Source: Dehalococcoidia bacterium (lineage in GTDB: Bacteria > Chloroflexota > Dehalococcoidia > DSTF01 > WHTK01). From it: a stretch of DNA of 64,000 nucleotides. The translations under genes and the position numbers were made by a program. Within the stretch, counting starts at the first letter, position 1. Each line of letters opens with the position of its first letter. Below, piece by piece: positions 215 to 60,876 of the stretch. The notes beneath the pieces were generated by a model. The model was not told the DNA's origin. It made no database searches and saw nothing but the letters and a program-made list of their open reading frames with translations. Where the stretch lies: positions 256,819 to 320,818 of the forward strand of contig CBDCMQ010000003.1 in assembly GCA_965219205.1 (NCBI GenBank), read 5' to 3'.

Positions 215-413
215 TGAGCCCCTCCTGGATGTTCTCCTAAAAGCCAATGGCGTAAGAGTAAACCTCTCCTACTCGCGCGGGAAGCTATTGTTTTAAGTAC
301 CGGGAATGAGGGCGGCACTTCTAGCAATACCTAGACCCACGCGGACATCTCGCATTATCTTTACGTCACTAACCCCGCCGGTTCTTCAGAAGCAAACATC
401 GACTGGAGCCGTC

Positions 414-3918: not shown

Positions 3919-4127
3919 ACATGTAACGTCTATATTACATTTCCAGGCCAAAAATGCAACCAATCGCCAATCTGGCTGGGATGGCCTCCGACCTTGATTG
4001 TGAGACGTGAAGGCTGCGACAAGCTGCCTTGATTTCCTGTGTTTAGACAAGCAGCTGCCTGCGCCCTCGCCAAGCAGGGTGCCGTGGGCATATGCATTGG
4101 CAGCATTTCAAACTAAGCTGATCGCCT

Positions 4128-4493: not shown

Positions 4494-4546
4494 GACTAAG
4501 ACCCAGCCGCCGCTGAACTGAGTGGGTGCGAAAGGCACACACGGCA

Positions 4547-4595
4547 CCTGGGTAGCTAGTGCCGGAGGCACACGCATACCCGGCCTTTCAAAAAA
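4547..4595 (-). repeat. palindromic repeat unit (head TTTTTTGAAAGG, stem CCGGGTA/TACCCAGG, inner hairpin GTGCC-TCC-GGCAC)
   Basis: The reverse complement reads TTTTTTGAAAGGCCGGGTATGCGTGTGCCTCCGGCACTAGCTACCCAGG. It starts 4 nt after the prs stop codon, in the same orientation as prs. Confidence 0.8.
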
Positions 4596-5771: not shown

Positions 5772-5949
5772 CCGTCATAATTTCGATTGACCGCGCTTAA
5801 TCGAGCTGCCTACACTCAATGACAGCGAACTGGCAAAGCCATCTTGCGGGAATTTCAAAAACAGCCATGCTTGAACCAAGAAAAGTGCTCACGACGCTCG
5901 CGCAAAGGCTCCCGTCCACTTGGCGGTATTTGAAAAAAATAGGTAGATA

Positions 5950-9750: not shown

Positions 9751-9831
9751 TTATCGATTTTTTGAAATACCGGGAATGACGGCGGCTTGCCGCCTACTTC
9801 CCGGGAGCGCCGGCAGCGTTGTATACGCTCA
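9751..9831 (+). repeat. palindromic repeat unit plus module B, flanked by a 14-bp direct repeat
   Basis: TTTGAAATACCGGGAATGACGGCGGCTTGCCGCCTACTTCCCGGGAGCGCCGGCAGCGTTGTATACGCTCA. CGCGACTAGTCACT occurs at both 9737..9750 and 9832..9845. Confidence 0.85.
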
Positions 9832-10360: not shown

Positions 10361-10420
10361 ACGACGCTGCCGACGCTCCTGGGAAGTTGGCGGCTTGCCG
10401 TCTTCATTGTCGGCATTTCA
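10361..10420 (-). repeat. palindromic repeat unit plus module B (partly degenerate)
   Basis: The reverse complement is TGAAATGCCGACAATGAAGACGGCAAGCCGCCAACTTCCCAGGAGCGTCGGCAGCGTCGT. Its first TGA is the stop codon of the UbiA-like gene. Confidence 0.75.
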
Positions 10421-11335
10421 TCGATACGCCGTGAGGACGATCATTGAGGTCACAACCCAGCCTAAAGCAGTCAGAACCAGCGGCACGTCCTTCACTAGAA
10501 CCTCCTCAGGGCTGCCGCCTTCGTTGAGAGTCAACGAAAGGTAGAGGTACCGGAAGATCCCGTAGACCACGAACGGGATCGTCAGCATCATCATGTGGTT
10601 ATCCGGCAAGTTCTCGGCCGTAAAAGTGTAGAGCGCGTAGGCGATCACCGTAGAGGCAGTGACCATCGATGTCATTTGATCGAGGAACGCCGGCGTGTAG
10701 TGCTCCAGAGTTGACCGGTGGCCGGTGGCGTCTTCCTGCAAAAGGTTGACCTCAGCCCGCCGCTTTGTAATCACCAGAAACAGAGCGCCAAGAGCGGTTA
10801 CCACGTAGAGCCAGGGCGATATCGGTACTTCGATGGCGTAGGCGCCGGCAATCGCCCTCATAACGAATCCGGCCGAGATCGCCATTACGTCGAGGATCAC
10901 CTGAAACTTGAGCACAAACGTGTAACTGGCCATCAGGCCGATATAGCCGAGTACAACGGCACCGGTACGCCAATCGATCAAGAACGCAACCGTTATGCCA
11001 ATTGTCGAGGCGATGACCGCCGCACTTACTGCGACCCTTGGCTCCAGTAGGCCAGCAGCGATAGGACGCAGCCTCTTCCGCGGATGCAGCCGGTCGCTGG
11101 CCTGATCCCGGACATCGTTCACCAAGTACTCGGCCCCGGCGACCAGCGAGAAAGCCAGGGCGGTGACTAGCGCTCGAAGGAACAGGTGGTCCCAGGTGGC
11201 TAACGTCTCCGCCTGCCAGTGCTGATTGACCGAGAAGATCAGCGCAATGAAAACGATGCCGTTTTTGCTCCACTGTCGCGGACGCATCGAACTCAAGATG
11301 TAGGGCAATTGGCGGAGGGCGGGTTCTAAAGTCAA
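10418..11335 (-). CDS. UbiA-family prenyltransferase, decaprenyl-phosphate phosphoribosyltransferase-like
   Basis: 305-aa polytopic membrane protein. The N-terminal MRPRQWSKNGIVF and NDVRDQASDRLHPRK motifs are typical of DPPR synthase-type UbiA enzymes. Confidence 0.75.
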   Translation of the reverse strand: MTLEPALRQLPYILSSMRPRQWSKNGIVFIALIFSVNQHWQAETLATWDHLFLRALVTALAFSLVAGAEYLVNDVRDQASDRLHPRKRLRPIAAGLLEPRVAVSAAVIASTIGITVAFLIDWRTGAVVLGYIGLMASYTFVLKFQVILDVMAISAGFVMRAIAGAYAIEVPISPWLYVVTALGALFLVITKRRAEVNLLQEDATGHRSTLEHYTPAFLDQMTSMVTASTVIAYALYTFTAENLPDNHMMMLTIPFVVYGIFRYLYLSLTLNEGGSPEEVLVKDVPLVLTALGWVVTSMIVLTAYR

Positions 11336-15845: not shown

Positions 15846-15983
15846 TTCCAGGAAGCTAGTGGCGTAGGCACACATTCCTGGTACCCCATACCCGTTCGCA
15901 TCTTTGCCCTGCCGCCCAACGCTGCCGACGCTCCGGTGAAGGCCCACAGCGATCAAGTGAAGCCGCGTTGACGGCATTCCAAA
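15846..15983 (-). repeat. two degenerate palindromic repeat units plus module B
   Basis: The reverse complement contains TTTGGAATGCCGTCAA...TTCACCGGAGCGTCGGCAGCGTTGGG and TACCAGGAATGTGTGCCTACGCCACTAGCTTCCTGG. It fills the GNAT/NUDIX spacer. Confidence 0.7.
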
Positions 15984-15997
15984 TAATGGGAGCTTAA

Positions 15998-16658: not shown

Positions 16659-16767
16659 TCGACTTATGGCTGCTCTTTCCAGGTATCAGCCAAGGTCATC
16701 CGAGGAGTCCCCGCCAAGCAGAGCGCGCCGGTGCCCAAGGCATGCACTTTACGGTAATCCAAGAAAA

Positions 16768-16820
16768 ACGCTGCCGGGAAGTTGGCGGCAAGCCGCCCTC
16801 ATTCCCGGTATTTCAAAAAA
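16768..16820 (-). repeat. palindromic repeat unit between the two tRNA genes
   Basis: The reverse complement is TTTTTTGAAATACCGGGAATGAGGGCGGCTTGCCGCCAACTTCCCGGCAGCGTT. Confidence 0.85.
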
Positions 16821-18961: not shown

Positions 18962-20079
18962 TGTACTCGTCCAGTAGATGCCGGACACTTACCTCCTCTC
19001 GGTGAATGCTAGCAGCCACTCTTGCGGCGTTAGATGGCCAAGGGCCTGATCGGGCCGGTAAGTGTTGTAACGCTGCTCCTGTTGGAGCAGCTGGGTTCTC
19101 AGTTGGCTGAACGAGTCGGGTGGGTCAACCAACTGGTAAAGCTCCTCTTTGTGGGTGCGCTGGGCTCGTTCCAGGCAGCCGTTGAGCTTGGGGGAGCGTG
19201 GTGGCAGCACAAAAAGCCGCAGCCCCTTCTGCTCACAGGCGGCCTCAAACTCGGCCCTGAACTCAGAGCCACCGTCCACCTGGATCGCCTTCACCGGACC
19301 CGGCATACGCTCGATGACCGTATCGAGGAAGTCGCGCGCCGTGCCGGCGGTAGCGCGGCCGTAGACACCCAAGACGTCCCAGCGGCTGACAATATCACGC
19401 GCCGAGAAGTGCTTGTAGGCATGGGTAATACCGGTCCAGCGCACGTCGGCGCTGTCCACCTGAACCAGATCTCCCGGCGCCTTGACGACGTAGTCTTTGG
19501 GCTTACGCACGGCATAGGGCCGCACCTGAGGCCGAGAGACGATGCAAGGGTCCTTCAGACTCGCAGGCCCCAGTTTGCCTTGGCGTCTGAGCCGGCTGAG
19601 GATGCGGCCCACCATCGAGACCGAGATAGTGACCCCTTGGCGTCTGAGGATCGGCTGTAGCTTGTCTTTGCCCCAGACGGGATTGTCTTGGCGCAGGCGT
19701 AGCACCGCTGCTTCGAACTCTAGGCTCCAAGTCGGCTTGCGGACCTGGTGTGGCCTATGGCTGCGGTCTTCCAGACCCCGCGGACCCTGGAGCCGGTAGC
19801 ACTCTAGCCACTGGTAAAGGGTTGAGCGGCTGCGTCCAAAGCGTCTTGCCGTCAGACTCACCTTCTCGCCGTGATCCTTGTGCCACTCAACAGCCCTGAG
19901 GCGCGCCTTCGCCTCACGTGATAGTCGTGGCTCCTCCCTGCCTTCCTGCGCTCCCTCTGGGAGGAGACGAGCCAGGGTTGGACCGCCTGGGATGATCGAC
20001 CCGTACGTCTGCATTGGGACTCCGTATCGTCCCTGCCTTCTCATCATTGTCGTGTACGGCATCTTTCTGAACGAGATCA
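18962..20079 (-). mobile_element. IS481-family-like insertion sequence, copy 1 (1118 bp)
   Basis: The ends TGTACTCGTCCAGTAGATGCCGGACAC and (reverse complement) TGATCTCGTTCAGAAAGATGCCGTACAC form ~28-bp imperfect IRs. Direct repeat GCATGC at 18956..18961 and 20080..20085. Near-identical to 36161..37278 and 42033..43151. Confidence 0.9.
18989..20062 (-). CDS. DDE (rve-type) transposase, IS481-like
   Basis: N-terminal HTH (SLTARRFGRSRSTLYQWLECY) plus integrase core with D (VQVDSAD), D (VDGGSEF) and E (CLERAQRT). Start placed at the first ATG inside the IS; it could be further downstream. Confidence 0.85.
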   Translation of the reverse strand: MPYTTMMRRQGRYGVPMQTYGSIIPGGPTLARLLPEGAQEGREEPRLSREAKARLRAVEWHKDHGEKVSLTARRFGRSRSTLYQWLECYRLQGPRGLEDRSHRPHQVRKPTWSLEFEAAVLRLRQDNPVWGKDKLQPILRRQGVTISVSMVGRILSRLRRQGKLGPASLKDPCIVSRPQVRPYAVRKPKDYVVKAPGDLVQVDSADVRWTGITHAYKHFSARDIVSRWDVLGVYGRATAGTARDFLDTVIERMPGPVKAIQVDGGSEFRAEFEAACEQKGLRLFVLPPRSPKLNGCLERAQRTHKEELYQLVDPPDSFSQLRTQLLQQEQRYNTYRPDQALGHLTPQEWLLAFTERR

Positions 20080-20081
20080 GC

Positions 20082-20309
20082 ATGCTTTATTGGGTGAGAA
20101 ACAAGAAGGGCCAAATTGCGGCAGAAGTCAGCGAGATAGGCCTCTCCGTGCATGACCAGAAGTTAAGCTGGCAACTCCAAAAGTTGAAGGAAGAAGGCGC
20201 TCCCCCCTTTAACGCTGGCGACGCCTCGGAAGGGCGGTCTTGGAATTTGGCCACGCTGCTGCCCTTCCTTGAGGAAAGCGATTACACGGTGGAGCGTCAG
20301 GACACGTAG
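20082..20309 (+). CDS. hypothetical 75-aa protein whose RBS was separated from its ATG by IS copy 1
   Basis: The ATG lies inside the right target duplication. The original AAAGGAG SD is now at 18947..18953, left of the IS. Confidence 0.3.
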   Translation: MLYWVRNKKGQIAAEVSEIGLSVHDQKLSWQLQKLKEEGAPPFNAGDASEGRSWNLATLLPFLEESDYTVERQDT

Positions 20310-25440: not shown

Positions 25441-25507
25441 ACCCGGCAAGCTGGTGCCAAAGATGGCTTCGCCTATTCGCACACGCATTGCCGGCAGTTC
25501 AAAAAAT
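25441..25507 (-). repeat. palindromic repeat unit (long inner-hairpin variant)
   Basis: The reverse complement is TTTTTGAACTGCCGGCAATGCGTGTGCGAATAGGCGAAGCCATCTTTGGCACCAGCTTGCCGGG. Confidence 0.75.
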
Positions 25508-34584: not shown

Positions 34585-34720
34585 TCTCGCGGCATTCGGT
34601 AAGCAGGTGCCGAGGACGGCTTCGCCGGTCTGCACACTTATTGGCGGTATTTCAAACCGACCAACGTTGCCAACCCTCCCGGGAAGTAGGCGGCTTGCCA
34701 ATCATTCCCTGTGTTCAAAT
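34585..34720 (-). repeat. two tandem palindromic repeat units
   Basis: The reverse complement contains TTTGAACACAGGGAATGATTGGCAAGCCGCCTACTTCCCGGGAGGG... followed by TTTGAAATACCGCCAATAAGTGTGCAGACCGGCGAAGCCGTCCTCGGCACCTGC... Confidence 0.8.
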
Positions 34721-34739
34721 AAATCTAAGCGTAGCCTGC

Positions 34740-36140: not shown

Positions 36141-36160
36141 AAAGTTTTTGAAATACCGGC
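36141..36160 (+). repeat. head of a palindromic repeat unit, cut by IS copy 2
   Basis: AAAGTTTTTGAAATACCGGC, then the IS. The unit resumes at 37279 (..AATGCTGCTTCGCTTG..). Confidence 0.8.
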
Positions 36161-37278
36161 TGTACTCGTCCAGTAGATGCCGGACACTTACCTCCTCTCG
36201 GTGAATGCTAGCAGCCACTCTTGCGGCGTTAGATGGCCAAGGGCCTGATGGGGCCGGTAAGTGTTGTAACGCTGCTCCTGTTGGAGCAGCTGGGTTCTCA
36301 GTTGGCTGAGCGAGTCGGGTGGGTCAACCAACTGGTAAAGCTCCTCTTTGTGGGTGCGCTGGGCTCGTTCCAGGCAGCCGTTGAGCTTGGGGGAGCGTGG
36401 TGGCAGCACAAAAAGCCGCAGCCCCTTCTGCTCACAGGCGGCCTCAAACTCGGCCCTGAACTCAGAGCCACCGTCCACCTGGATCGCCTTCACCGGACCC
36501 GGCATACGCTCGATGATCGTATCGAGGAAGTCGCGCGCCGTGCCGGCGGTAGCGCGGCCGTAGACACCCAAGACGTCCCAGCGGCTGACAATATCACGCG
36601 CCGAGAAGTGCTTGTAGGCATGGGTAATACCGGTCCAGCGCACGTCGGCGCTGTCCACCTGAACCAGATCTCCCGGCGCCTTGACGACGTAGTCTTTGGG
36701 CTTACGCACGGCATAGGGCCGCACCTGAGGCCGAGAGACGATGCAAGGGTCCTTCAGACTCGCAGGCCCCAGTTTGCCTTGGCGTCTGAGCCGGCTGAGG
36801 ATGCGGCCCACCATCGAGACCGAGATAGTGACCCCTTGGCGTCTGAGGATCGGCTGTAGCTTGTCTTTGCCCCAGACGGGATTGTCTTGGCGCAGGCGTA
36901 GCACCGCTGCTTCGAACTCTAGGCTCCAAGTCGGCTTGCGGACCTGGTGTGGCCTATGGCTGCGGTCTTCCAGACCCCGCGGACCCTGGAGCCGGTAGCA
37001 CTCTAGCCACTGGTAAAGGGTTGAGCGGCTGCGTCCAAAGCGTCTTGCCGTCAGACTCACCTTCTCGCCGTGATCCTTGTGCCACTCAACAGCCCTGAGG
37101 CGCGCCTTCGCCTCACGTGATAGTCGTGGCTCCTCCCTGCCTTCCTGCGCTCCCTCTGGGAGGAGACGAGCCAGGGTTGGACCGCCTGGGATGATCGACC
37201 CGTACGTCTGCATTGGGACTCCGTATCGTCCCCGCCTTCTCATCATTGTCGTGTACGGCATCTTTCTGAACGAGATCA
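36161..37278 (-). mobile_element. IS481-family-like insertion sequence, copy 2 (1118 bp)
   Basis: Same ends as copy 1. Direct repeat (A)CCGGC at 36155..36160 and 37278..37283. Inserted in a repeat-unit head. Confidence 0.9.
36188..37261 (-). CDS. DDE (rve-type) transposase, IS481-like
   Basis: Differs from the copy 1 product at a handful of residues (for example V/I, D/H, F/L, Q/R). Confidence 0.85.
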   Translation of the reverse strand: MPYTTMMRRRGRYGVPMQTYGSIIPGGPTLARLLPEGAQEGREEPRLSREAKARLRAVEWHKDHGEKVSLTARRFGRSRSTLYQWLECYRLQGPRGLEDRSHRPHQVRKPTWSLEFEAAVLRLRQDNPVWGKDKLQPILRRQGVTISVSMVGRILSRLRRQGKLGPASLKDPCIVSRPQVRPYAVRKPKDYVVKAPGDLVQVDSADVRWTGITHAYKHFSARDIVSRWDVLGVYGRATAGTARDFLDTIIERMPGPVKAIQVDGGSEFRAEFEAACEQKGLRLFVLPPRSPKLNGCLERAQRTHKEELYQLVDPPDSLSQLRTQLLQQEQRYNTYRPHQALGHLTPQEWLLAFTERR

Positions 37279-37480
37279 CCGGCAATGCTGCTTCGCTTGT
37301 TCGCCGTGGGCCTGAGCGGGGCTCAGGGCCTTTCCGTGCGTCACGGGTGCGAACACCCGCTCTGTTCAGCGCCGGCCAGCGTTTGTTCGGCGAGGTGCAG
37401 CGATCGGAATACCGACAATGCTTGTGCGAGAAGGGCGAAGCCGTCTTCGGCAGCGGCTTCCCTGGTAAAAAGACGTAAGG
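37279..37480 (+). repeat. repeat array: remainder of split unit, module C, second unit, module D
   Basis: Contains GCGTCACGGGTGCGAACACCCGCTCTGTTCAGCGCCGGCCAGCGTT (also at 40535..), then CGGAATACCGACAATGCTTGTGCGAGAAGGGCGAAGCCGTCTTCGGCAGCGGCTTCCCTGGTAAAAAGACGTAAGG. Confidence 0.8.
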
Positions 37481-37481
37481 C

Positions 37482-38792
37482 TCAGCAGGCCGCTTCGGCC
37501 GCGGCGTAATAATCGTGCACTACTTCGCGGCCCCCAAAACCCAGGTCCTCAGGGTTCATGCAGGCAGGCAGCATTCCCAAACCAATCAGAAGTTCTATAT
37601 CAGAAGCCAACACAGACTCCGAAATCCTCAGGAGACCTTTGTTTTGCAGCAGTCGTGCCGTGGGTATCGTCTTGGTCTGAGCGTTGGCGAGGGCTCCGAC
37701 AATGAACGCCATCGTTTCTTCCGCTTGCCCCTGCCGGTCCAGCCTCTCGTATAGGTCGCCTACAACCTGTCCATGCAACCTTGGGTGCACATCCTCAAAG
37801 TAGGTTGCCGCTGATTGCAAGACGCCTTCAGCGTTGGGCAGTACGAGGCTGATGTAAGCGTGGACTAATTCGTGGGCCAGGCTGGGCACCTCACCGTTCA
37901 GCCACAACGGCTTCTGAACCAGGCGACGCCTTGGCTGATACAAAGCCCGGATAAAGCCGGTCTCCGGCGCGCCAAAAATCAGAAACGACGGCGCCATTAC
38001 ACTGACATCGGCGTCTGCGGCATCGAGGCTTTCAGCAAGGTGAGCAAGAACGATATTCGTCTCAATCAGCTCCGGCAGGGTTCGGTCGCCCTCAATGATG
38101 AACGGCCCAAAAATCGTGAAATCGGAATTGGATAGTTCGCGTGAACTTGCATCATCCACGTCTACCATCAGCCGTTGCAAGGCTTGCACCAGCGTCGCCA
38201 GCGGCTGATTCGATTCGCCCCTGACTTGGGGAAGACCCACAAACGCGCCCTGAACCGACTGGCCAGTCCGCCGAAATTCAGGCAGTTCAACCGCAAACAC
38301 AGTCGGCAAGTTCTCATCACGCAGGGCAAGGACCCGAAACTCGGTTCCGGAGGGCAGGGCCGCAATAAAGATTGTTGCGCTTTCTTTGTGCCTGCCTAGC
38401 AGTCGATCCAGCACCGTCCGGGGAAATTCCAGGCGCTGGACCTCACCGACCAAAAGCAGTTCAACGCTCGTCTCCTCGCGAACCACGGATTCAATTATTT
38501 CCAGCTCTTCTGAAATGGCTTGATTAGCTCCAAACAGTCCGTGGACAAGAGGGTATTCCGCGGCAGCCGGTATTCTCGAAGCGGGATCGTACAGGCTGCG
38601 GCCGGCGGCGAGTGCGCCGAAAACCAGAAGAACCAGCGCAATCGCAACAATCAGCCAGGCAGCGACGCCACGCCAGCGCAGTCTCCGAGGCGTCAGTTCG
38701 GGCTCAGGCCCTTCATCGTCCCCGCGGTCCCAGTGAGGGTCATAGCCGGCGGTGAAACCATCGGCGAGGCGTTCAGTCAAACGAAAGCCCAC
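37482..38792 (-). CDS. hypothetical single-pass membrane protein with HExxH motif (putative metallopeptidase-like)
   Basis: 436 aa with GTG start, one TM (AAWLIVAIALVLLVFGALAA) and an extracytoplasmic domain containing SLAHELVHAYISL. Confidence 0.5.
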   Translation of the reverse strand: MGFRLTERLADGFTAGYDPHWDRGDDEGPEPELTPRRLRWRGVAAWLIVAIALVLLVFGALAAGRSLYDPASRIPAAAEYPLVHGLFGANQAISEELEIIESVVREETSVELLLVGEVQRLEFPRTVLDRLLGRHKESATIFIAALPSGTEFRVLALRDENLPTVFAVELPEFRRTGQSVQGAFVGLPQVRGESNQPLATLVQALQRLMVDVDDASSRELSNSDFTIFGPFIIEGDRTLPELIETNIVLAHLAESLDAADADVSVMAPSFLIFGAPETGFIRALYQPRRRLVQKPLWLNGEVPSLAHELVHAYISLVLPNAEGVLQSAATYFEDVHPRLHGQVVGDLYERLDRQGQAEETMAFIVGALANAQTKTIPTARLLQNKGLLRISESVLASDIELLIGLGMLPACMNPEDLGFGGREVVHDYYAAAEAAC

Positions 38793-38835: not shown

Positions 38836-38915
38836 CGAACGAGGGCCTAGCGTCTTTTTTTACCCCCGTGCGAATAGGCGCCACGGCTTGCCGCGATTAT
38901 TGCCGGTATTCCAGA
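38836..38915 (-). repeat. palindromic repeat unit plus module D
   Basis: The reverse complement is CTGGAATACCGGCAATAATCGCGGCAAGCCGTGGCGCCTATTCGCACGGGGGTAAAAAAAGACGCTAGG. Confidence 0.75.
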
Positions 38916-39196
38916 TAATCAAGCCGATCACTTCGTCTGCTATTATGCCCCCGTGCATGAAACTTACGTATTCGTGCCGTTTCTCCGGAGCGGGATCAAC
39001 CGCGGCATTCGAGTCCGCGTACAGCCTCAATACGTGCTTTGAGTACGACCCAGCATTTCAGACTCCCCTCAATCCCGATCTCAGTGCAGTCGGTCGCGTT
39101 CAACGCGATTGCGTCGCCCTGGGCGAGGCTATGACGAACCTCTGGCGCCGTTGCGAAAAGACAAACGCGGCTGGCAGTTCCTAAAGCTTGACCTAA

Positions 39197-40449: not shown

Positions 40450-40795
40450 GATACCGGGAGCGCATGCGCTCTTGGACTGCTCCGGCATTGTTTGGAATAC
40501 CGGCGATTTAGGCGGCACGCCACCCACTTGCCGGGCGTCACGGGTGCGAGCACCCGCTCAGTTCAGCGCCGGTCAGCGTTGGTCAGGCATGAGCCGCCCA
40601 CGCCGAGAGGCGTGGGCTCTACTTCGCTGACGCTCGGCCTTGCCTGGACCGCTACGCCTGTTCGCGTCGGCAGCGCGTGTGACCTCGAGAAGTGCTTCGG
40701 GATTTTTTGAAATACTGGGAATGGCCGTAGGCCTTCCCAGTGGGTAAAAGACGTCAGGCCTTTTGGACGGTCAGCGTTCCCGGTATCTAAAAAAC
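40450..40795. repeat. composite repeat array (at least 3 units in both orientations, modules C and D)
   Basis: TTTGGAATACCGGCGATTTAGGCGGCACGCCACCCACTTGCCGGG plus module C. Then TTTTTTGAAATACTGGGAATGGCCGTAGGCCTTCCCAGTGGGTAAAAGACGTCAGG. Then an inverted head GCGTTCCCGGTATCTAAAAAA abutting the LLM stop codon. Confidence 0.8.
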
Positions 40796-41710: not shown

Positions 41711-41752
41711 ATCTGAACTCCCTTATTTAAAGCCCGAGCTCCCCACCAACAC

Positions 41753-42009
41753 CTAATCGTGTCCTTCTCTTCGCCACCCTCCGCCATCTTCTGGCTCGAC
41801 TGTTCGTGCGCCCAGAGGGCTGCCTTCCTGTTGTATCGCAACAAGAGCGCGTCTTTCTCCCTCGCGTGGGCGTCCGGATCGGAGCCGTGCTGTTCGCTTA
41901 GCAGCGGCTTGGCTTTTCGAACTCGTCCTTCTCGCCCGGGTTGCCTAAGAGGTGGTTGCGAAAATTGACCATCGCTTTGCTGGCCGTGTAATCGGTCCAG
42001 TCTAATCAT
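41753..42009 (-). pseudogene. GrpB-family gene remnant (C-terminal ~85 codons only)
   Basis: Translates to ..DWTDYTASKAMVNFRNHLLGNPGEKDEFEKAKPLLSEQHGSDPDAHAREKDALLLRYNRKAALWAHEQSSQKMAEGGEE... This is about 80% nt-identical to the 3' end of grpB at 45465..45720. A stop lies immediately upstream, and a 1-nt deletion removes the native stop. Confidence 0.7.
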
Positions 42010-42032: not shown

Positions 42033-43151
42033 TGTACTCGTCCAGTAGATGCCGGACACTTACCTCCTCTCGGTGAATGCTAGCAGCCACTCTTGCGGCG
42101 TTAGATGGCCAAGGGCCTGATGGGGCCGGTAAGTGTTGTAACGCTGCTCCTGTTGGAGCAGCTGGGTTCTCAGTTGGCTGAGCGAGTCGGGTGGGTCAAC
42201 CAACTGGTAAAGCTCCTCTTTGTGGGTGCGCTGGGCTCGTTCCACGCAGCCGTTGAGCTTGGGGGAGCGTGGTGGCAGCACAAAAAGCCGCAGCCCCTTC
42301 TGCTCACAGGCGGCCTCAAACTCGGCCCTGAACTCAGAGCCACCGTCCACCTGGATCGCCTTCACCGGACCCGGCATACGCTCGATGACCGTATCGAGGA
42401 AGTCGCGCGCCGTGCCGGCGGTAGCGCGGCCGTAGACACCCAAGACGTCCCAGCGGCTGACAATATCACGCGCCGAGAAGTGCTTGTAGGCATGGGTAAT
42501 ACCGGTCCAGCGCACGTCGGCGCTGTCCACCTGAACCAGATCTCCCGGCGCCTTGACGACGTAGTCTTTGGGCTTACGCACGGCATAGGGCCGCACCTGA
42601 GGCCGAGAGACGATGCAAGGGTCCTTCAGACTCGCAGGCCCCAGTTTGCCTTGGCGTCTGAGCCGGCTGAGGATGCGGCCCACCATCGAGACCGAGATAG
42701 TGACCCCTTGGCGTCTGAGGATCGGCTGTAGCTTGTCTTTGCCCCAGACGGGATTGTCTTGGCGCAGGCGTAGCACCGCTGCTTCGAACTCTAGGCTCCA
42801 AGTCGGCTTGCGGACCTGGTGTGGCCTATGGCTGCGGTCTTCCAGACCCCGCGGACCCTGGAGCCGGTAGCACTCTAGCCACTGGTAAAGGGTTGAGCGG
42901 CTGCGTCCAAAGCGTCTTGCCGTCAGACTCACCTTCTCGCCGTGATCCTTGTGCCACTCAACAGCCCTGAGGCGCGCCTTCGCCTCACGTGATAGTCGTG
43001 GCTCCTCCCTGCCTTCCTGCGCTCCCTCTGGGAGGAGACGAGCCAGGGTTGGACCGCCCTGGGATGATCGACCCGTACGTCTGCATTGGGACTCCGTATC
43101 GTCCCCGCCTTCTCATCATTGTCGTGTACGGCATCTTTCTGAACGAGATCA
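42033..43151 (-). mobile_element. IS481-family-like insertion sequence, copy 3 (1119 bp)
   Basis: Same ends as copies 1 and 2. Direct repeat (A)CGCCG at 42027..42032 and 43151..43156. Confidence 0.9.
42060..43134 (-). pseudogene. IS481-like transposase with +1 frameshift
   Basis: CCC at 43057..43059 where copies 1 and 2 have CC. The HTH-containing N-terminus is therefore out of frame with the DDE core (ORF 42060..42932). Confidence 0.8.
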
Positions 43152-43180
43152 CGCCGAGCATCGGGTAAACTTGCCAAGAA

Positions 43181-45251: not shown

Positions 45252-45464
45252 CTAAATCGATCCGGCCAGGGCGTCACAGCAACGTGCACGGCCCAAACCG
45301 TCCCTGATGCGACCCAAAGCCCCACGGGTTAAGACCCCTGGGGCTTCACTACCGGCCTGCGCATAGCGTTTGAGCGGCGAACCGGGTGTCTACGGCCTCC
45401 CCAGGTGCCAATCGATTAGCCGTCACACCCAGAAGCCCGCCAAACAAACCACCAACCTCAACCC

Positions 45465-46025
45465 CTAATCGTGCTCTTCCTCCTCGCCGCCTTCGGCCAT
45501 CTTCTTGCTCCACTGCTCGTGCGCCCACAGCGCCGCCTTGCGGTCGTATCGCAGCAAGAGCGCGTCTTTCTCACGGGCGTGGGCGTCCGGATCGGAGCCG
45601 TGCTGTTCGATTAGTTGGCGCTTGGCTGCTTCGAACTCGGTCTTCTGGTCCGGGTTACCCAACAGGTGGTTGCGGAAGTTGACCATCGCCTTGGTGGCCG
45701 TGTGATCTTCTAGCAGCGCATGAATTGTGAAGCCCTGCTGCGATGATTTGATGAAGAACTGTCGGCCAGGAAGGTCAGCCTCACCGCGAAACTCGTAACC
45801 TAGTCCTGCCAGAGCTTGGATTTCTTCCTCATCCAAAGGCCTTGTCAGCACCATCAGGATGTCGATCACCGGCGCCGCCGCCAGGCCGGGTACCGCCGTG
45901 CTGCCGACGTGATGCAGGTCCTTGATCGCCTCCGGAGCCACCGCCTGCAAAGGCTCCTTTTCCTCGGCAAAGCGACGCCGCCAAGATGGGTCGTGCTCGG
46001 CAATTAGCGCCTGTTCCTGATTCAT
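45465..46025 (-). CDS. GrpB-family protein
   Basis: 186 aa. ..LHHVGSTAVPGLAAAPVIDILMV.. matches the GrpB/nucleotidyltransferase-like core. Confidence 0.85.
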   Translation of the reverse strand: MNQEQALIAEHDPSWRRRFAEEKEPLQAVAPEAIKDLHHVGSTAVPGLAAAPVIDILMVLTRPLDEEEIQALAGLGYEFRGEADLPGRQFFIKSSQQGFTIHALLEDHTATKAMVNFRNHLLGNPDQKTEFEAAKRQLIEQHGSDPDAHAREKDALLLRYDRKAALWAHEQWSKKMAEGGEEEEHD

Positions 46026-46057
46026 TAGATTTGCCTGCCTCTGGAGTTTTTTCTATT

Positions 46058-46137
46058 GTTTCAAATACCGGCAATGAGCGTGCCTCAGGCACCTACTTGC
46101 CGGGGGGGGTAAAAGACTTAGTTCCATTCATCGTCGC
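46058..46137 (+). repeat. palindromic repeat unit plus module D with G8 tract
   Basis: GTTTCAAATACCGGCAATGAGCGTGCCTCAGGCACCTACTTGCCGGGGGGGGTAAAAGACTTAGTTCCATTCATCGTC. Confidence 0.85.
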
Positions 46138-46151
46138 CTCGTCTTCCCGCC

Positions 46152-46523
46152 CTAAACGTAAGTGTGGGTGATGACTTCCCAACTGTGACGGTCGCTGTCT
46201 TTGAAATAGAAGCCGCGTCCGCCGTGCATATGGTTGATCTTCCCGTCGGTTGTTGAACCAGGCCCGCTGCCAAAAGCCAGCCCCTCAGCCTGAACCCGCT
46301 CCAAGATCGAGTCGAACTCCTCGTCCGAAGCCAAGAAAGCATAGTGATGAGGCTCAAAAGTGTCGCGATTGTCGAAGTCCAAGGAAAGCGTCTCGTTGAT
46401 CTTCACCGGGGCAAAGTGGCCCCAGTGCCCGTTGTACTCGAGTCCGAAGAGGCGGGCGATCAGCCGCGCTGATTCCTCCTTGTCTCGTGCCGGAACGATC
46501 GTGTGATCAAGGTAGAGCGGCAT
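46152..46523 (-). CDS. VOC-family (glyoxalase-like) protein
   Basis: 123 aa. MPLYLDHTIVPARDKEESARLIARLFGL...HYAFLASDEEFDSILERV...GFYFKDSDRHSWEV. Confidence 0.8.
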   Translation of the reverse strand: MPLYLDHTIVPARDKEESARLIARLFGLEYNGHWGHFAPVKINETLSLDFDNRDTFEPHHYAFLASDEEFDSILERVQAEGLAFGSGPGSTTDGKINHMHGGRGFYFKDSDRHSWEVITHTYV

Positions 46524-46537
46524 ATTCTTCTCCTTTG

Positions 46538-46820
46538 TTTGAAATACCGTGAATGGCCGTGGGCCTTCACGGGAGCGTCGGCAGCGTGGTTCGCGCTCAC
46601 GCCGCCAGCCGATTGAAATACCGTGAATGATGGCGGCTTGTCGCCCACTTCACGGGAGCGTCGGCAGCGTCTTTGCGTTGCCACAGTAACGGGCTCCGCC
46701 CGGGCCCTCGTTTGAAATACCGGCAATGATAATGGCTAGTCGCCTGCAAGCCGCCTACTTGCCGGGGGGGGGGGGGGGGGGGGGGGGTAAAAGACGTTAG
46801 TCCCCCTTTATCGTCAGCCC
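46538..46820 (+). repeat. tandem array of three palindromic repeat units (with module B tails and module D)
   Basis: Heads at 46538, 46613 and 46711. Outer stems are CCGTGAA/TTCACGG (twice) and CCGGCAA/TTGCCGG. The third unit ends in G24 plus TAAAAGACGTTAG. Confidence 0.9.
46764..46787 (+). repeat. homopolymeric G24 tract
   Basis: 24 consecutive G counted from the printed sequence. It occupies the position of GG/GGG/G5/G8 in other copies of the repeat. Confidence 0.9.
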
Positions 46821-46826
46821 AAGAGC

Positions 46827-46897
46827 CCATCCAACATACCACCTGGAACTCAGTACATGGCGAACGGCGAGGCCACATTGGCGGTATTTCAAATGAG
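46827..46897 (-). repeat. palindromic repeat unit (tail-to-tail with the 46538..46820 array)
   Basis: The reverse complement is TTTGAAATACCGCCAATGTGGCCTCGCCGTTCGCCATGTACTGAGTTCCAGGTGGTA. The outer stem TACCGCC/GGTGGTA has one G-T pair. Confidence 0.7.
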
Positions 46898-48222
46898 CCA
46901 ACTACCGGGTCAAAATAGCTTCGGCGGGCTCGACCTCGACAGGCCGCGATCGCAAGACGTTGGTTCGCAGGGCGCCGTTGGCGAGAACACAAGAGGACCA
47001 GAATTAGGCCCGCCCCACCTAACGCGGCTCGCAGGCCAATCGCGTCGGCCGCGAATCCAATCGGCGCCGAAGCTACGAATCCGATCGCGGCAACCAAGCT
47101 CCAGACACTACTGGTTCGACCCAAGATGTTGGGCGGCACTTCCATCTGCAGCAACGTCTGGCCGCCGACAATCATCACCGCTAGACAGAAGCCAAAGCCG
47201 GCGGCGGGTAGGAACTCCGCGTAGGCCCAGGGGATCAGGCCGAGCAGCGCAATGCTGAGACCCATAAACCCGGAGCCTACGAAGTAGAGCCGCAGGTTGT
47301 CGCGCACTTGCACCGTCATTATGAAGACGCTGCCAGCGATCGAACCGAGCCCTGAAGCCATGATGAACAATCCCGTGTTGCCGGCGCCAAAGTTCAGGAC
47401 CTCACGAGCGAAGCCGGGCGCCATCGACATGAAGGGCAGGCCAAAGAGGCCTACCATAAACGCCATCCCCATGAGGGTGCTGACCCTCGGAGCTGAAAAC
47501 GAGTAGCTCAGGCCTTCGACAAGCTCGCGCAACGGACTCCTGGCTTCGCCCTGCGACCCAACCGGGGCGGTGTGCACCACGGTCAAAAGTGCGATACCCA
47601 GGAATGCCAACCCAGAGCTTGTGGCCAAAGCAGCCGAGACGCCGGCCAGGCTGATGATTACACCGACGATCGACGGCCAGATCACCTGGGCAGATTGCAT
47701 CTGCACCGTATTAAGGGCGATCGCGTTCTTCAGATCCTCCGGCCCTACCAGGCTGCGGACCATCGCCGTCCTCGCTGGCATCGTCATCGCCTGCGCCGCG
47801 CCCAGGCCGGCCGACGACACGTAAACCTGCCAGGTGGCTATGACGTCTGCTTCTGAGAGCAAGGCCAAAACCAGCAGGTTTGAAGCGGTGAACGCCTGGG
47901 TCAGCAGAAGGATTTTCTTGCGATCGTAGCGGTCAGCCAGGACGCCGCCCCAGAGCGACACCGCCGACATAAACAGCCCATGATCAAATCATCAGACCAA
48001 ACTGGCTGATCGAACCCGTGAGATCGAGAATCAGCCATGCCATTACCAGCCGCTGGACGTTTTGTGAGCCGGTCATCCCCAGGCCGCTTAGCCAATACAG
48101 GCGGTAGTTGCGTAATCGCAGGGCTCTCAACGGGGCCGTACGGCTGGGTGAGGCTGAATTCTGGCTGGACATCGGGGCGAGCATAGCACGGGCTCATTCG
48201 CCCGAATCCTCGGTTACAACCG

Positions 48223-49041: not shown

Positions 49042-49115
49042 GATTAGATTTTACGACTTCGTCTGCTAATGATTGCACACTGCACCGGGTTGCACGCGGG
49101 CGTCGCTTCCTCACT

Positions 49116-49290
49116 ATTGAAAATGCCGGCAATGGCCATGGGCCTTGCCGGGAGCGCCGGCAGTGTGGTTCCCGCTCACGCCGCCAGCCGATTGAAATGC
49201 CGGCAATGTGTGTGCCTCTGGCACCTACTTGCCGGGATGGCTTCGCTTATTCGGGACGGCAAGGTCTTTGCGTCTAGCGGCGTGTCATCA
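49116..49290 (+). repeat. two tandem palindromic repeat units with module B
   Basis: ATTGAAAATGCCGGCAATGGCCATGGGCCTTGCCGGGAGCGCCGGCAGTGTGGTTCCCGCTCACGCCGCCAGCCG, then ATTGAAATGCCGGCAATGTGTGTGCCTCTGGCACCTACTTGCCGGG. Confidence 0.85.
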
Positions 49291-52527: not shown

Positions 52528-52560
52528 TCACCAGCCTTGCCGGCAAACTCTAGTAGCTAC

Positions 52561-53008
52561 TTTGAAGTACAGCAATGATGGCGGCATGCCGCCTACTTGC
52601 TGGGGCGTCGGCAGCGTCATTGCGTTGCCATGGTAGCGGGCTCCGCCCGGGCCCTGATTCGCAGGGCGCGGCGTAGATGACCAAAACTCTATCGTACCGG
52701 GCCCCGTCTCGGGTCCAACCGAGGTTAGCCTTTGAAACTAAGGTTAGTATTTCCAGCAATCGTCAGCTAAAATTGGCGATCTGCCGAGCCTACGGACTCA
52801 ACCGGAGGTGAGTATTCCGATCACGGGCGGCGTGACACATATTAACGCCGCCGACGCGAAAAAGCGGAGCGAGCCTGGCAGGTGAGTGCCAAAGGCACGC
52901 GGATTGCCAGTATTCAAACAAAGGCCGGGGGAGGAGCTCGCTACCGTGGCAACGCAAAGACGCTCCCGGCAAGTAGGCGGCATGCCGCCATCATTGCCGG
53001 TATTTCTA
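52561..53008. repeat. repeat-filled spacer: one plus-orientation unit facing three minus-orientation units
   Basis: 52561..52656 (+) is TTTGAAGTACAGCAATGATGGCGGCATGCCGCCTACTTGCTGGGGCGTCGGCAGCGTCATTGCGTTGCC... 52925..53008 (-) is TTAGAAATACCGGCAATGATGGCGGCATGCCGCCTACTTGCCGGGAGCGTCTTTGCGTTGCC... Further minus-orientation units lie at 52866..52920 and ~52805..52865. Confidence 0.85.
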
Positions 53009-53018
53009 AGGAGAAAAT

Positions 53019-53801: not shown

Positions 53802-54181
53802 TTTAGGCTCCCAAGATAGACTTTGAAGTACAGCATGTTGCTGCGCTACTGCGCTGCTTTTGCAAAACGTTGTTACTTAGAAAGTTGGTTCTGCCTACTC
53901 TTGGTCCCGTCAGACAACCGGTAATTGAAAAGATGATCACTTAATATTCCGGCCAGATTGCAATCTGACGCCGCGCGGGCAAAGCTGAATTGACGCCATT
54001 TCAAGACAAACTTCACCGACATGGGTTGACCGGCTCGCGGGCACGTGTTGTGATTACACCAACCCCCGCCGGATCTCAAACCGATGGCTCACTGGGACTT
54101 TGAGCCATTCTAGGAAAACGGCCCTGTTTACTATATCGCCGTTACCGGTTGCTCAGATTGTAGCCAAGCAGAGGCACGGAG

Positions 54182-59533: not shown

Positions 59534-59580
59534 CGTTGCCGGTATTCCGACCTAAAAGCAAACACCCGGCAGTTCAAATT
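59534..59580 (-). repeat. degenerate repeat-head fragments
   Basis: The reverse complement is TTTGAACTGCCGGGTGTTTGCTTTTAGGTCGGAATACCGGCAACGG. It overlaps the pdxA stop. Confidence 0.55.
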
Positions 59581-60569
59581 ACCGCTAGTTCGGCCGCAAC
59601 CTTCATGGCCGCAACCTGGCCCTTCGGGTCGGCAATCCACTGGCCGGCGATATCGAACGCGGTGCCGTGGTCGACGGATGTACGGATCACCGGGTAACCC
59701 AGCGTGCAGCTCACCGTTCCGTAGAAATCCACCGTCTTGGCGGCGATGTGGCCCTGGTCGTGATAGAGCGAGAGCACCGCGTCGTATCTGCCCTGGCGGC
59801 ACTGGTAGAACACTGCATCGGCTGGGATTGGCCCGACAACATCGATGCCAAACGAGCGCGCCCGCTCGAGCGCCGGCTTGAGGATCTCATTCTCTTCCTT
59901 GCCAAGAATGCCATTCTCCCCGGCGTGCGGGTTCAGGGCCGCCAGGGCTAAACGCGGCGAACTAAGCCCCAGCTTGGAGCTGAGTTCGGAGACCTCTTTG
60001 AGGGCCTTGACGACTGTCTCCTCGTCGACCCGTCCGATCGCATCCTTGAGCGAATGATGACGAGTGAGGAAAAAGATCCGCAGTTGGTCCAACAAGAACA
60101 GCGTGAAAACCCGGTCGTCCGGCGTGCCAAACAGCGAAGCGATCATCTCCGTGTGACCCAGGAAGGGTGAGCCAGCCGCCTGGATCGCTTCCTTGTTAAT
60201 CGGCGCGGTCACGATTCCTTGCACCGACCCGTCCCGGGCCAGGCCGCACGCGGCCTCGATGTATTCGACCGCTGCCCGACCAAACGCCCGGTTCATCCGG
60301 CCATATTCGTGATTCTCAACGTTGTCGAGGTCGAGGATCTCCAGGCTGCCGGGCTGGCCGAGAACCTCGCTGGGCTTGCTAATTGACCGCAGCTTCAGTT
60401 CGAGCCCGCAGCCGCGGATCACGTCAGACACGACCTTCGCGTCACCGATCACCAACGGCCGCAGCGATTCAAAAACGCCCTTCTCGGCCAGCCCCTTGGC
60501 AACGATCTCCGGTCCGATCCCGGCCGGATCGCCGATCGTTAGAGCCAAAACTGGTCTCGTATCACTCAT
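59574..60569 (-). CDS. pdxA: 4-hydroxythreonine-4-phosphate dehydrogenase family (PdxA/PdxA2)
   Basis: 331 aa with ..LALTIGDPAGIGPEI.., GHTEM, LNPHAGENG and HGTAFDIAG motifs. Confidence 0.8.
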   Translation of the reverse strand: MSDTRPVLALTIGDPAGIGPEIVAKGLAEKGVFESLRPLVIGDAKVVSDVIRGCGLELKLRSISKPSEVLGQPGSLEILDLDNVENHEYGRMNRAFGRAAVEYIEAACGLARDGSVQGIVTAPINKEAIQAAGSPFLGHTEMIASLFGTPDDRVFTLFLLDQLRIFFLTRHHSLKDAIGRVDEETVVKALKEVSELSSKLGLSSPRLALAALNPHAGENGILGKEENEILKPALERARSFGIDVVGPIPADAVFYQCRQGRYDAVLSLYHDQGHIAAKTVDFYGTVSCTLGYPVIRTSVDHGTAFDIAGQWIADPKGQVAAMKVAAELAVI

Positions 60570-60596: not shown

Positions 60597-60688
60597 TAAG
60601 GGCCAATAACGCCGCCGACGCGACTTGGCGTAGCCATTCCCGGGGGAAGTAAGCGCCAAAGGCGCATGAATTCCCGGTACTTCGAACA
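60597..60688 (-). repeat. palindromic repeat unit plus module B
   Basis: The reverse complement is TTCGAAGTACCGGGAATTCATGCGCCTTTGGCGCTTACTTCCCCCGGGAATGGCTACGCCAAGTCGCGTCGGCGGCGTTATTGG. Confidence 0.8.
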
Positions 60689-60876
60689 ATCGTACAGCGG
60701 AACCTTCCAATGGCCGCGTGTATGCTAGAGGCAGCTATGGCTGAGCCGAACCGCAGTGTCATCTTTCAGGCAACCAGAATTGACTCGGCCAGCTCTTGGC
60801 TATGTGCCGCAGTTTCACAAGTCGACAATTCTCTGGAGATCCATTTTATCGAAACGATCATTCAGCTCAGCCCACG

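Follow-up and report, generated by a model that had tools for sequence, protein, structure and literature searches.

A modular family of structure-constrained intergenic hairpin repeats in uncultured Chloroflexota labelled as Dehalococcoidia

Palindromic repeats of Bacteria and the family in the window

Repetitive extragenic palindromes (REPs) of the GTAG type are short stem-loops with an unpaired GTAG at one end (Di Nocera 2013, PMC3733652), and this tetranucleotide is the REP hallmark (PMC3733652). Two inverted REPs and a short spacer form the replicating unit called REPIN (Bertels and Rainey 2011, PMC3116915). As outlined in Nunvar 2010 (PMC2817692), a REPtron comprises the gene of a REP-associated tyrosine transposase (RAYT) flanked by two inverted repeat copies. 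The same paper describes bacterial interspersed mosaic elements (BIMEs) as regularly spaced REPs of alternating orientation with other conserved motifs interleaved. Within the Chloroflexi, Thermomicrobium roseum has GTAG-23 REPs nested in CCGSSCC(n3-4)GGSSCGG palindromes, and the CGTC REPs form a whole super-family without a dedicated transposase (PMC3733652). Here a family of intergenic hairpin repeats is described from a stretch of 64,000 nucleotides (nt) of a Dehalococcoidia bacterium (contig CBDCMQ010000003.1 of assembly GCA_965219205.1), which is called the window. A unit of this family consists of a head, a hairpin with an outer stem and an inner cassette, and a tail.

The repeats of the window are a lineage-specific, abundant, modular and structure-constrained family. 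The head TTTGAAATA is matched 27 times in the window with at most one mismatch, against 6.35 +/- 2.75 matches after shuffling, and none of 100 shuffles reaches 27. The pattern CCGGCAA-N8-30-TTGCCGG occurs four times for an expected 0.02. A covariance model, a check that had been proposed by an earlier reading of this DNA (the sequence-only reading), was made from 12 seed units with head and outer stem only; it recovers the family with 19 units at an expect value (E) below 1e-3 in the 64 kb. About 9-11 weaker or degenerate units raise the total to about 30, which confirms the count of at least 25 given by that reading. The outer-stem variants that it had listed (CCGGGAA, CCGTGAA, CTGGGAA, CAGCAA, CTGGCA and CCAGGAA with their complements) are all returned, each at the place assigned to it, by a scan for perfect 7-nt inverted arms resembling CCGGCAA, and a generic repeat finder yields these families and modules as well. 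None of the 30 units is coding, as had been claimed, although 79 % of the window lies in coding sequences by a rough gene model; the chance probability is about 2e-20. Seeming overlaps with open reading frames (ORFs) at 306, 36218 and 46597 are due to over-long calls; such calls are seen, for example, at the starts of the isocitrate dehydrogenase and Rieske genes and in an ORF of the major facilitator superfamily (MFS) that continues through the repeats. The units are found in convergent, divergent and unidirectional spacers alike, and their cores alone make up about 11 % of the non-coding DNA of the window, a share that becomes larger with the modules.

The family is confined to one lineage, a genus-level clade of uncultured Chloroflexota labelled as Dehalococcoidia. 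The window shares 99.4 % identity with a segment of contig_26 of the ENA assembly ERZ25072587 (strain L120), and homologues of its 980-amino-acid (aa) FAD/Fe-S oxidoreductase, labelled Dehalococcoidia or Chloroflexi, show 57-67 % identity. Four syntenic loci of 23 kb each were compared, with the amino acid identity of the 980-aa orthologue given in brackets: L122 (92 %) has about 12 units, L126 (83 %) about 20 and L123 (85 %) about 5, and the outgroup L127 (71 %, 66 % GC) has none in its 23 kb. Three units are present in L025 (OZ252017.1, 'MAG: Dehalococcoidia bacterium'). In the genome collection a 17-nt degenerate head pattern matched 119 loci, nearly all of them by chance, with L025 as a real case. 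Among Joint Genome Institute (JGI) metagenome contigs a 23-letter pattern gave one doubtful locus, L125 5316-5372 (66 % GC), which is not a unit by the covariance model. It carries an exact 19-nt copy of the unit tail, CCGGGAGCGTCGGCAGCGT, after an unrelated 27-nt hairpin, either by chance or as a hint of a tail motif common to other hairpin repeats. No real copy of the unit came from BLAST against plasmids or from the phage contigs scanned. Independent assemblies and read sets contain the family (ERZ25072587, ERZ28763718, ERZ24794640, ERZ25074053, ERZ26167216/OZ252017.1 and Logan runs). The scan for copies beyond the window, another proposal of the sequence-only reading, was thus successful in relatives, but the density is uneven, as shown below. 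With Rfam 15 only two tRNAs of the window reach the gathering threshold, 46000-46950 giving chance-level matches only, and the literature searched gave no account of a repeat of this kind from Chloroflexi or Dehalococcoidia; the earlier impression that this is not a described family is upheld.

Structure and turnover of the units

A unit measures about 65-110 nt. Its AT-rich 5' flank, TTGTTTGAAATA, and its 3' flank are both conserved and enclose a compound hairpin, which is built of an outer stem of 7 bp, an internal loop of small size and, as the exchangeable part, a GC-rich inner hairpin; the predicted folds agree with this drawing. Alignment of the flanks gives the full unit as (T/G)A, TTGTTTGAAATA, CCGGCAA, TG, inner cassette, C, TTGCCGG and GAGCGYCGGCAGCGTT, followed by a T-rich part. 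The conserved unit is therefore longer than the about 45 nt assigned to it at first, and the tail GAGCGYCGGCAGCGTT is part of it. In some copies a second hairpin, B1 or B2, lengthens this tail; in others its place is taken by module C, which consists of another hairpin and a near-identical CAGCGCCGGYCAGCGTT. In module D an alternative 3' flank, a G-run with TAAAAGAC or TAAAAGACGYYAGG, stands in place of GAGCGYCGGCAGCGTT. Modules B, C and D had already been noticed, and both the flank alignment and the repeat finder show them to be real. Composite copies are mosaics of these common modules: 46527-46629 is 82 % identical to 49106-49208, and 37330-37391 is 87 % identical to 40527-40588.

The inner cassettes include an S type (GGCC-RTG-GGCC), a G type (GGCGG-loop-CCGCC between TGA and TAC) and a V type (GTGCC-N3-GGCAC) as well as longer forms, either V with a nested GGC-GAA-GCC hairpin or with other inserts. 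Each outer-stem variant is found with S, G and V cassettes, which bears out the interchangeability of the inner hairpins proposed before, and an S/V chimera is present at L126 9087. On the strand opposite the head, GTAG or GYWG is located 5' of the inner stem, within the internal loop of the larger hairpin; G-type cassettes read AA-GTA-GGCGGC on this strand, and TAC is present in 12 of about 17 copies. Neighbouring units with a short and a long cassette nearly always carry the same outer-stem variant, and homologous dimers at separate loci differ concordantly in all four arms. Such matched outer stems could be the result of gene conversion between neighbours or of a need for cross-pairing.

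Conservation of the structure is seen in an alignment of 45 units from four genomes, which was fitted by a pairing-rewarding model and consists of paralogous copies, so that independent events are fewer than the cells counted and part of the signal is inherited within subfamilies. With this proviso, pairing in the outer stem reaches 94.2 %, both sides have changed in five of the seven pairs (32 cells), and none of 500 shuffles matches the observed pairing or covariation score. The covariation signal is gone when the 3' partner is shifted by one to three columns. At least eight arm variants are perfectly paired, and compensated variants of the inner stem are known as well, i.e. GGCC/GGCC versus GGCT/AGCC and GTGCC/GGCAC versus GCGCC/GGCGC. 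These data agree with the compensatory stem change described by the sequence-only reading. Its suggestion that the fold is under selection needs a qualification: the structure is kept, but selection is indistinguishable from a DNA palindrome being maintained mechanically, such as by gene conversion between arms or neighbours.

The present turnover of the units takes place mainly by recombination, in the form of gain and loss between direct repeats, cassette swaps and homogenisation of stems between neighbours. Orthologous units are found across species upstream of the isocitrate dehydrogenase, S49 peptidase and NUDIX genes and between tRNA-Gln and tRNA-Asn, and they have decayed in some lineages. 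The unit at 288..326 of the window has a full orthologue at L122 3593, and the degenerate units at 5826..5938 have intact orthologues in L123 and L126. Downstream of the gene for the 980-aa protein the window has a single (+) unit, L122 has three (-) units and L123 has one (-) unit. The unit of the NUDIX-UbiA spacer is found in opposite orientations, the spacer of L123 that is orthologous to that of the unit at 10377..10424 contains a unit of reversed orientation, and the UbiA-MFS spacer of about 100 nt is devoid of units in three genomes and holds five in L126. The acetyltransferase and NUDIX genes overlap in L127; in the window degraded units fill their junction. At the tRNA site the unit 16772-16820 is orthologous to L122 20370, with flanks, head and outer stem kept and a wholly different inner cassette. 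The copy of the window has a 9-nt deletion at the junction of tail and arm, which in combination with the cassette swap is a signature of inter-copy recombination.

As far as the repeats are concerned, the two 99.4 %-identical strains differ only in one indel and in the lengths of G-runs. At 52873..53012 one extra copy of 137 bp (unit and B2) is present in L120, and the indel is bounded by a 25-nt direct repeat, GCTACCGTGGCAACGCAAAGACGCT. The G-runs, each directly after the right arm of a unit, measure 24 in the window versus 16 in L120 (46764-46787) and 8 versus 6 (46102-46109), a difference which is either true hypervariability or a homopolymer error of long reads. Copies of the unit within one genome are at most about 93 % alike, versus 99-100 % for copies of an insertion sequence (IS), and several insertions are common to species whose 980-aa orthologues are 83-92 % identical; the repeat family is therefore old.

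Origin and possible role of the repeats

The units are best read as non-autonomous hairpin repeats of REP/BIME type, which spread over intergenic sites and are now turning over by recombination; we give this reading a probability of roughly 0.62. The family colonised the intergenic DNA of the genus-level clade, and its turnover is now mainly recombinational. The original dispersal may have occurred as single-stranded DNA hairpins, mobilised in trans by an HUH/Y1 enzyme such as the TnpA of IS200/IS605 or a RAYT; the conserved single-stranded flanks, the hairpin kept in shape, the lack of terminal inverted repeats and the lack of target duplications point in this direction. The single-copy RAYT of the clade is the sole candidate mobiliser seen, and a doubtful one. 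The window itself has no RAYT, as already stated by the sequence-only reading: Pfam and ORF scans show no Y1 transposase in the window, nor do the Pfam tables list one for the first seven related loci. A RAYT, for which a search of the genome and its relatives had been recommended, was met outside the window by way of the IS481 transposase, on another contig of the same assembly at L130 14327-14800 (-) (NCBIfam NF047646, 92.5 bits with a cut-off of 80; Pfam Y1_Tnp, 1.6e-9). Relatives have intact orthologues with 84-88 % identity, among them the 168-aa protein P0121 on the 3.59-Mb contig to which L122 belongs. The gene is single-copy throughout and keeps its synteny (Iso_dh, RAYT, aldo-keto reductase - amidase). 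Such a single copy in fixed synteny is the usual behaviour of RAYTs.

The orientation of the units suggests an effect on intergenic RNA. About 22 pairs of neighbours are arranged head-to-tail, three tail-to-tail and none head-to-head; the only inverted pairs are L122 3593/3702 and, in the window, 46708/46826 and 40703/40795. In the unidirectional spacers of the window 13 units are antisense and three are sense to transcription, which corresponds to eight spacers versus one (two-sided p about 0.04, nine intergenic regions). The sign of the GC skew is constant throughout the window, so the direction of replication does not explain the orientation blocks, and a replication-strand bias was rejected. 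From their position between unidirectional or convergent genes the units are expected to be co-transcribed. The hairpin in the favoured sense would then protect a 3' end or weakly terminate transcription between cistrons, and selection on such an intercistronic RNA effect would produce a bias in orientation. In this sense the order on the mRNA is stop codon, AACGCUGCCGACGCUC, hairpin, UAUUUCAAACAA, Shine-Dalgarno (SD) sequence and AUG. In six independent spacers the head is located 7-15 nt from a verified start codon, and in L122 and L126 it adjoins a -35-like TTGACT box. A unit is not a canonical intrinsic terminator, because a proper U-run after the hairpin is missing: the terminator scan picked up no unit, and the best tail, UAUUUCAA, has four U in 8 nt. 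An outward promoter in the unit was rejected, too, as there is no sigma-70-like site in 40-54 kb and manual inspection revealed no -35/-10 pair.

Several observations weigh against a REP/BIME-type origin with an RNA effect. The RAYT in the assembly of the window has an in-frame TAG. In L130, L131, L133 and L134 the RAYT is flanked by a classical GTAG REP of its own, REP-A (CCGTAG-GGACGGCGC-TTTA-GCYCCGTCC), with seven copies within 3.5 kb in L131 and two inverted copies each in L130 and L134 (regions L130 14250-14900, L131 8300-11850 and L134 9850-10400). REP-A has no copy in the window, L120, L122, L123 and L126, which together represent about 153 kb of repeat-rich sequence. Units of the abundant family do not flank the RAYT, the nearest one being 10 kb away, so that the defining association of REP and RAYT fails for this family. 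All that REP-A and the family have in common is the GTAG tag of the G-type inner cassette; V-type cassettes mostly have GCTG in its place, and the short S-type cassette is without GTAG. Head-to-tail arrays are unusual for REPs (PMC3733652). Three other 20-kb regions of these genomes hold 1, 1 and 0 units. A clean pair of filled and empty sites was sought at orthologous loci and none was found, the apparent empty sites being decayed remnants or untidy insertions of whole arrays; unit ends and target are therefore undefined and transposition is undemonstrated. Mismatches of the G-T and C-A kinds occur at equal frequency (6 versus 7 cells) and thus give no sign of selection at the RNA level on one strand. 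Finally, the hairpin has no proper U-run, and canonical terminators exist elsewhere in the genome (e.g. at about 5745-5795), which leaves the orientation as the one feature that suggests a role in RNA.

An unlikely but serious alternative regards the units primarily as RNA hairpins with a function for the host, located between cistrons or at 3' ends, which stabilise transcripts, terminate or insulate transcription, or tune the translation of the gene downstream, and which are maintained by selection and were multiplied by duplication and gene conversion and not by a transposase. The orientation is biased with respect to transcription for a reason other than replication, UAUUUC follows the hairpin in the favoured sense, and the AT-rich head adjoins the SD sequence in the six regions and the TTGACT box in the two loci mentioned above. 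Furthermore, several units are kept at orthologous sites and the stem is held by compensatory change. However, units also exist in divergent spacers, which offer nothing for a terminator to act on, some lineages let orthologous copies decay freely, and the number per spacer ranges from 0 to 5 among close relatives. The adjacency of head and SD sequence is more simply understood by arrays that fill tiny junctions, since genes overlap or lie few nt apart in L127, and was downgraded as evidence for a function in translation. In addition, the units are not canonical terminators, lack a strand asymmetry in wobble pairs and are missing from many regions.

It is improbable that the units are MITEs (miniature inverted-repeat transposable elements), i.e. 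deletion derivatives of a DDE-type IS moved via its terminal inverted repeats. Small size, intergenic location, abundance and restriction to a lineage would fit MITEs, composites of about 100-300 nt recur, and an active IS of the IS481 family is present. The window contains three copies of it, 99-100 % identical (18962-20083, 36161-37285 and 42033-43152), with a transposase of 341/365 aa possessing helix-turn-helix (HTH) and rve_3 domains and with the target duplications GCATGC, CCGGC and CGCCG. But the head of a unit is not an inverted repeat of its tail, and the units are not flanked by target-site duplications. The ends of IS481 (TGTACTCGTCC.../...GAACGAGATCA) are unrelated to the units and one of three copies is inserted in a unit, so that this IS was rejected both as mobiliser and as an element that targets units. 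An ORF of 436 aa at 37482-38792 (-), bracketed by inverted copies of unit and module D, was rejected as a transposase: it shows an N-terminal membrane anchor, a HELVH motif and no Pfam domain. By these features it may be an uncharacterised membrane-anchored metalloprotease with an HExxH-like motif.

Little probability is likewise given to the idea that the inner GTAG hairpins are the true mobile REPs, which insert or exchange within a pre-existing carrier palindrome as in T. roseum. It would account for the presence of S, G and V cassettes in all outer-stem variants, the chimeric S/V cassette of L126, the cassette replaced at the orthologous tRNA site with flanks and outer stem kept, and the GTAG of G-type cassettes; moreover, there is a precedent in the same phylum (PMC3733652), and the clade has a RAYT. 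Yet long cassettes are found in place of the short one, not as insertions into it, and no free-standing G cassette was seen outside the carrier. The 9-nt deletion that accompanies the cassette swap in the window resembles recombination between copies, and the REP belonging to the RAYT has a different stem.

A bolder version, for which the chances are slender, is a two-tier system of non-coding cassettes, with the carrier hairpin as a dock at which GTAG cassettes would be inserted and exchanged as single-stranded DNA by a domesticated RAYT. If this were true, the identity of a hairpin at a fixed site would be rewritable in an integron-like manner, for structured non-coding DNA, and the matched outer stems of neighbours would be due to a need of the units to cross-pair. 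Practically no weight is left for the repeats being artefacts of assembly, attC sites of an integron or a regulon's operators: the units are palindromic, arranged in arrays and accompanied by long G-runs that are suspect in long-read assemblies, but the same family is present in independent assemblies and read sets, there are neither RYYYAAC/GTTRRRY cores nor an integrase, both orientations occur among housekeeping genes and tRNAs, and operators do not tolerate compensatory changes of their arms or variable spacers of 12-50 nt.

With a REP/BIME-type family in uncultured soil Chloroflexota resembling Dehalococcoidia, a new lineage is added to those with dense arrays of this kind. One genome combines a classical RAYT and its own REP as a pair with a far more abundant hairpin family without cognate transposase. 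It is thus a natural test case for the mobilisation of non-cognate hairpins that share GTAG by a RAYT, or for the persistence of orphan repeats by recombination alone, as may be compared with the CGTC REPs. If the orientation bias is due to an RNA function, a widespread layer of intercistronic control would exist in the lineage. For strain typing and assembly it is relevant that strains with 99.4 % identity differ in unit number and in the length of G-runs. The repeats also mislead gene callers, as ORFs cross units and the G-run at 46597-46900 and calls differ between strains. The MFS ORF at 46597-47970 (-) and its counterpart L120 8334-9788 have no stop before the array; the calls extend into the units and the poly-G (poly-Pro) and end differently in the two strains, and the length of the G-run alters the reading frame. 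The true C-terminus of the MFS protein is probably near 46900.

Units of the window and comparison with known systems

The region around 46 kb starts with a V-type unit (GTGCC-TCA-GGCAC) at 46056..46121 (+), found by model R1 with 60 bits (E 5e-13) and with a stable predicted fold. Its head (46056-46067) is followed by the outer stem (46068-46074/46097-46103), a G-run up to 46109 and module D, TAAAAGACTTAG (46110-46121). The next unit, 46535..46612 (+), is of S type (GGCC-GTG-GGCC) with the stem CCGTGAA/TTCACGG and tail B1 (GAGCGTCGGCAGCGT GGTTCGCGCTCACGCCGCCAGCCGA; 51.3 bits), and 12 nt lie between its head and the start codon of a glyoxalase gene on the minus strand. The same stem is used by the G-type unit (GGCGGC..GTCGCC) at 46609..46710 (+; 63 bits), the B2 tail of which has the second hairpin GGCAGCG..CGTTGCC and then GCCCGGGCCC. 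A long composite inner cassette characterises the unit at 46708..46801 (+; 59.5 bits), with a G-run of 24 (46764-46787) and module D, TAAAAGACGTTAGT. Tail-to-tail with it and at the 3' end of the MFS gene there is a degenerate unit, 46826..46896 (-; 14.3 bits, E 0.15).

Further downstream, 49114..49237 (+) is a head-to-tail heterodimer of an S-type unit, tail B1 and a V-type unit (42.8 and 57.7 bits), both with CCGGCAA/TTGCCGG, and is the partner with 82 % identity to 46527-46629. A G-type unit with the stem CAGCAA/TTGCTG and tail B2 is located at 52558..52655 (+; 56 bits). The minus-strand pair at 52873..53012 consists of a V-type unit (52873-52921; 23.2 bits) and a G-type unit (52964-53012; 67.9 bits) with B2 between them, and 7 nt separate the end of the head from the ATG at 53019. 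A doubtful short unit that was absent from the earlier list is found at 53905..53933 (-; 14.1 bits, E 0.18), a weak or degenerate one between convergent genes at 59537..59581 (-; 14.1 bits, E 0.17), and one with the compensated inner stem GCGCC/GGCGC at 60638..60689 (-; 31.8 bits).

The best score of all belongs to the G-type unit at 9758..9822 (+) between convergent genes, with CCGGGAA/TTCCCGG, a tail, 72.7 bits (E 4e-16) and a supporting fold. The composite 40488..40795 (+; 42 and 44.5 bits) is built of a unit, module C (hairpin GGGTGCGAGCACCC, then CAGCGCCGGTCAGCGTT), a spacer, an S-type unit with the stem CTGGGAA/TTCCCAG, module D and a partial inverted unit at the end. A similar composite, 36144..37480 (+), is split in its left arm by the IS481-family IS at 36161-37285, with CCGGC duplicated. 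A unit with module D (on the minus strand GGGGGTAAAAAAAGACGCTAGGCC) is present at 38836..38918 (-; 18.6 bits, E 0.013), two head-to-tail units between convergent genes at 34594..34722 (-; 16 and 35 bits), and a unit with a long cassette (V stem, nested GGC-GAA-GCC) at 25441..25506 (-; 49.4 bits, fold).

In the first part of the window, the truncated unit upstream of the isocitrate dehydrogenase gene is at 288..326 (+; 19.3 bits). Then follow 4064..4115 (-; 26.1 bits), with its head 13 nt from the ATG at 4128, and 4546..4595 (-; 27.2 bits), which has CCGGGTA/TACCCAGG and a tail like module C. Upstream of the S49 peptidase gene there are two degenerate units (5826..5938, -; 19 bits), the second head being 12 nt from the ATG. 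The unit at 10377..10424 (-; 26 bits) is an exception, since in a tandem pair of minus-strand genes it is sense to transcription. Two or three degraded units (15846..15986, -; 14.7 and 8.2 bits) fill the junction of the acetyltransferase and NUDIX genes, and the two units at 16709..16820 (-; 68 and 8 bits) separate tRNA-Gln(TTG), 16585-16658, from tRNA-Asn(GTT), 16879-16953. In L123 the counterpart of this tRNA neighbourhood has a serine recombinase and a primase-like gene instead, which look like an integrated element.

Some neighbouring features were seen alongside. Four genomes have a conserved non-coding region of about 200 nt between prs (minus) and the gene for the S49 peptidase (plus), at 5592-5800 of the window, L122 8729-8930, L123 8682-8890 and L126 8670-8880. 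It ends with a canonical GC-rich hairpin and T5, GAAGCGCTCGGCC..GGGCGCTTC-ACTTTTT, has no match in Rfam and may be a small RNA or a leader or attenuator of prs. One IS481 copy adjoins a fragment (41747-41993) which is 84 % identical to the 3' part of a GrpB gene (45459-45702); judged from the sequence, its insertion probably truncated a GrpB paralogue. L120 differs from the window by a 23-bp tandem duplication, GCAGTTCCTAAAGCTTGACCTAA, at 39173 just upstream of the start of a CNNM/CorC gene, and by a 6-bp indel at 52098, where it is without GTCAGC inside a gene of a luciferase-like monooxygenase.

Among described systems, the REP and BIME elements of Proteobacteria (palindromic units (PU)/REP of Escherichia coli, Pseudomonas and Stenotrophomonas; PMC2817692, PMC3733652) are similar to the family in being short, GC-rich, imperfect palindromes of intergenic location, high copy number and restriction to a lineage. 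Further likenesses are the mosaics with small motifs, the compensatory change of stems, a GTAG beside the hairpin, here the inner one in most G-type cassettes, and a position mostly between unidirectional and convergent genes. In contrast to REPs, the GTAG of the family is located inside a larger hairpin and not at the end of one, the conserved single-stranded flanks are long (12 nt 5' and 16 nt 3'), and the inner hairpins are exchangeable. The family does not flank the RAYT of its genome as in a REPtron, this RAYT having its own REP. With the counts of neighbour pairs given above, the head-to-head and tail-to-tail arrangement of REPINs is rare or missing, and unlike in BIMEs the orientation within arrays is uniform, although modules B, C and D are present. 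Regarding other classes of elements, head and tail are not complementary, no junction duplication is seen and the ends of IS481 are unrelated, in contrast to MITEs of DDE type. The arms CCGGCAA-T/C-TTGCCGG without AAC/GTT core, the occurrence of both orientations and the absence of an integrase from the window distinguish the units from integron attC sites, and in the terminator scan none of them resembles an intrinsic terminator.

The BOX elements of Streptococcus pneumoniae are likewise abundant small intergenic repeats that are not known to have a dedicated transposase; they are modular as well, with the order boxA-boxB(n)-boxC and tandem internal modules, but have no sequence similarity to the family. 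The ends of IS200/IS605 elements and of the palindrome-associated transposable elements derived from them, which are non-autonomous (PATEs; see also PMC6006769), combine a hairpin recognised by its shape with a conserved single-stranded flank and lack terminal inverted repeats and target duplications. IS200/IS605 ends have two different subterminal hairpins and a defined target of 4-5 nt, whereas the units have one compound hairpin and no definable target. Compared by description, the GTAG-23 REPs of T. roseum belong to the same phylum and share the GTAG hairpin within an outer CCG...CGG palindrome and the clustered arrays; they form few large blocks, whereas the units are dispersed over many spacers and their carrier has a conserved head and tail. 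The CGTC REPs (PMC3733652) are also abundant, small, palindromic intergenic repeats without a known dedicated transposase. They possess an 8-9-bp stem starting with A-T pairs, a loop of 4-5 nt and a CCA tail, whereas in the family CGTC is found 3 nt past the compound stem, inside the 16-nt tail. The likeness to REP/BIME or MITE-type elements that the sequence-only reading had drawn is thus fair in broad terms, but the link of REP and RAYT, the alternating orientation, and terminal inverted repeats with target duplications all fail. The repeats are best placed, as a new family, in the broad class of REP-like elements, nearest in their logic to the orphan REP families.

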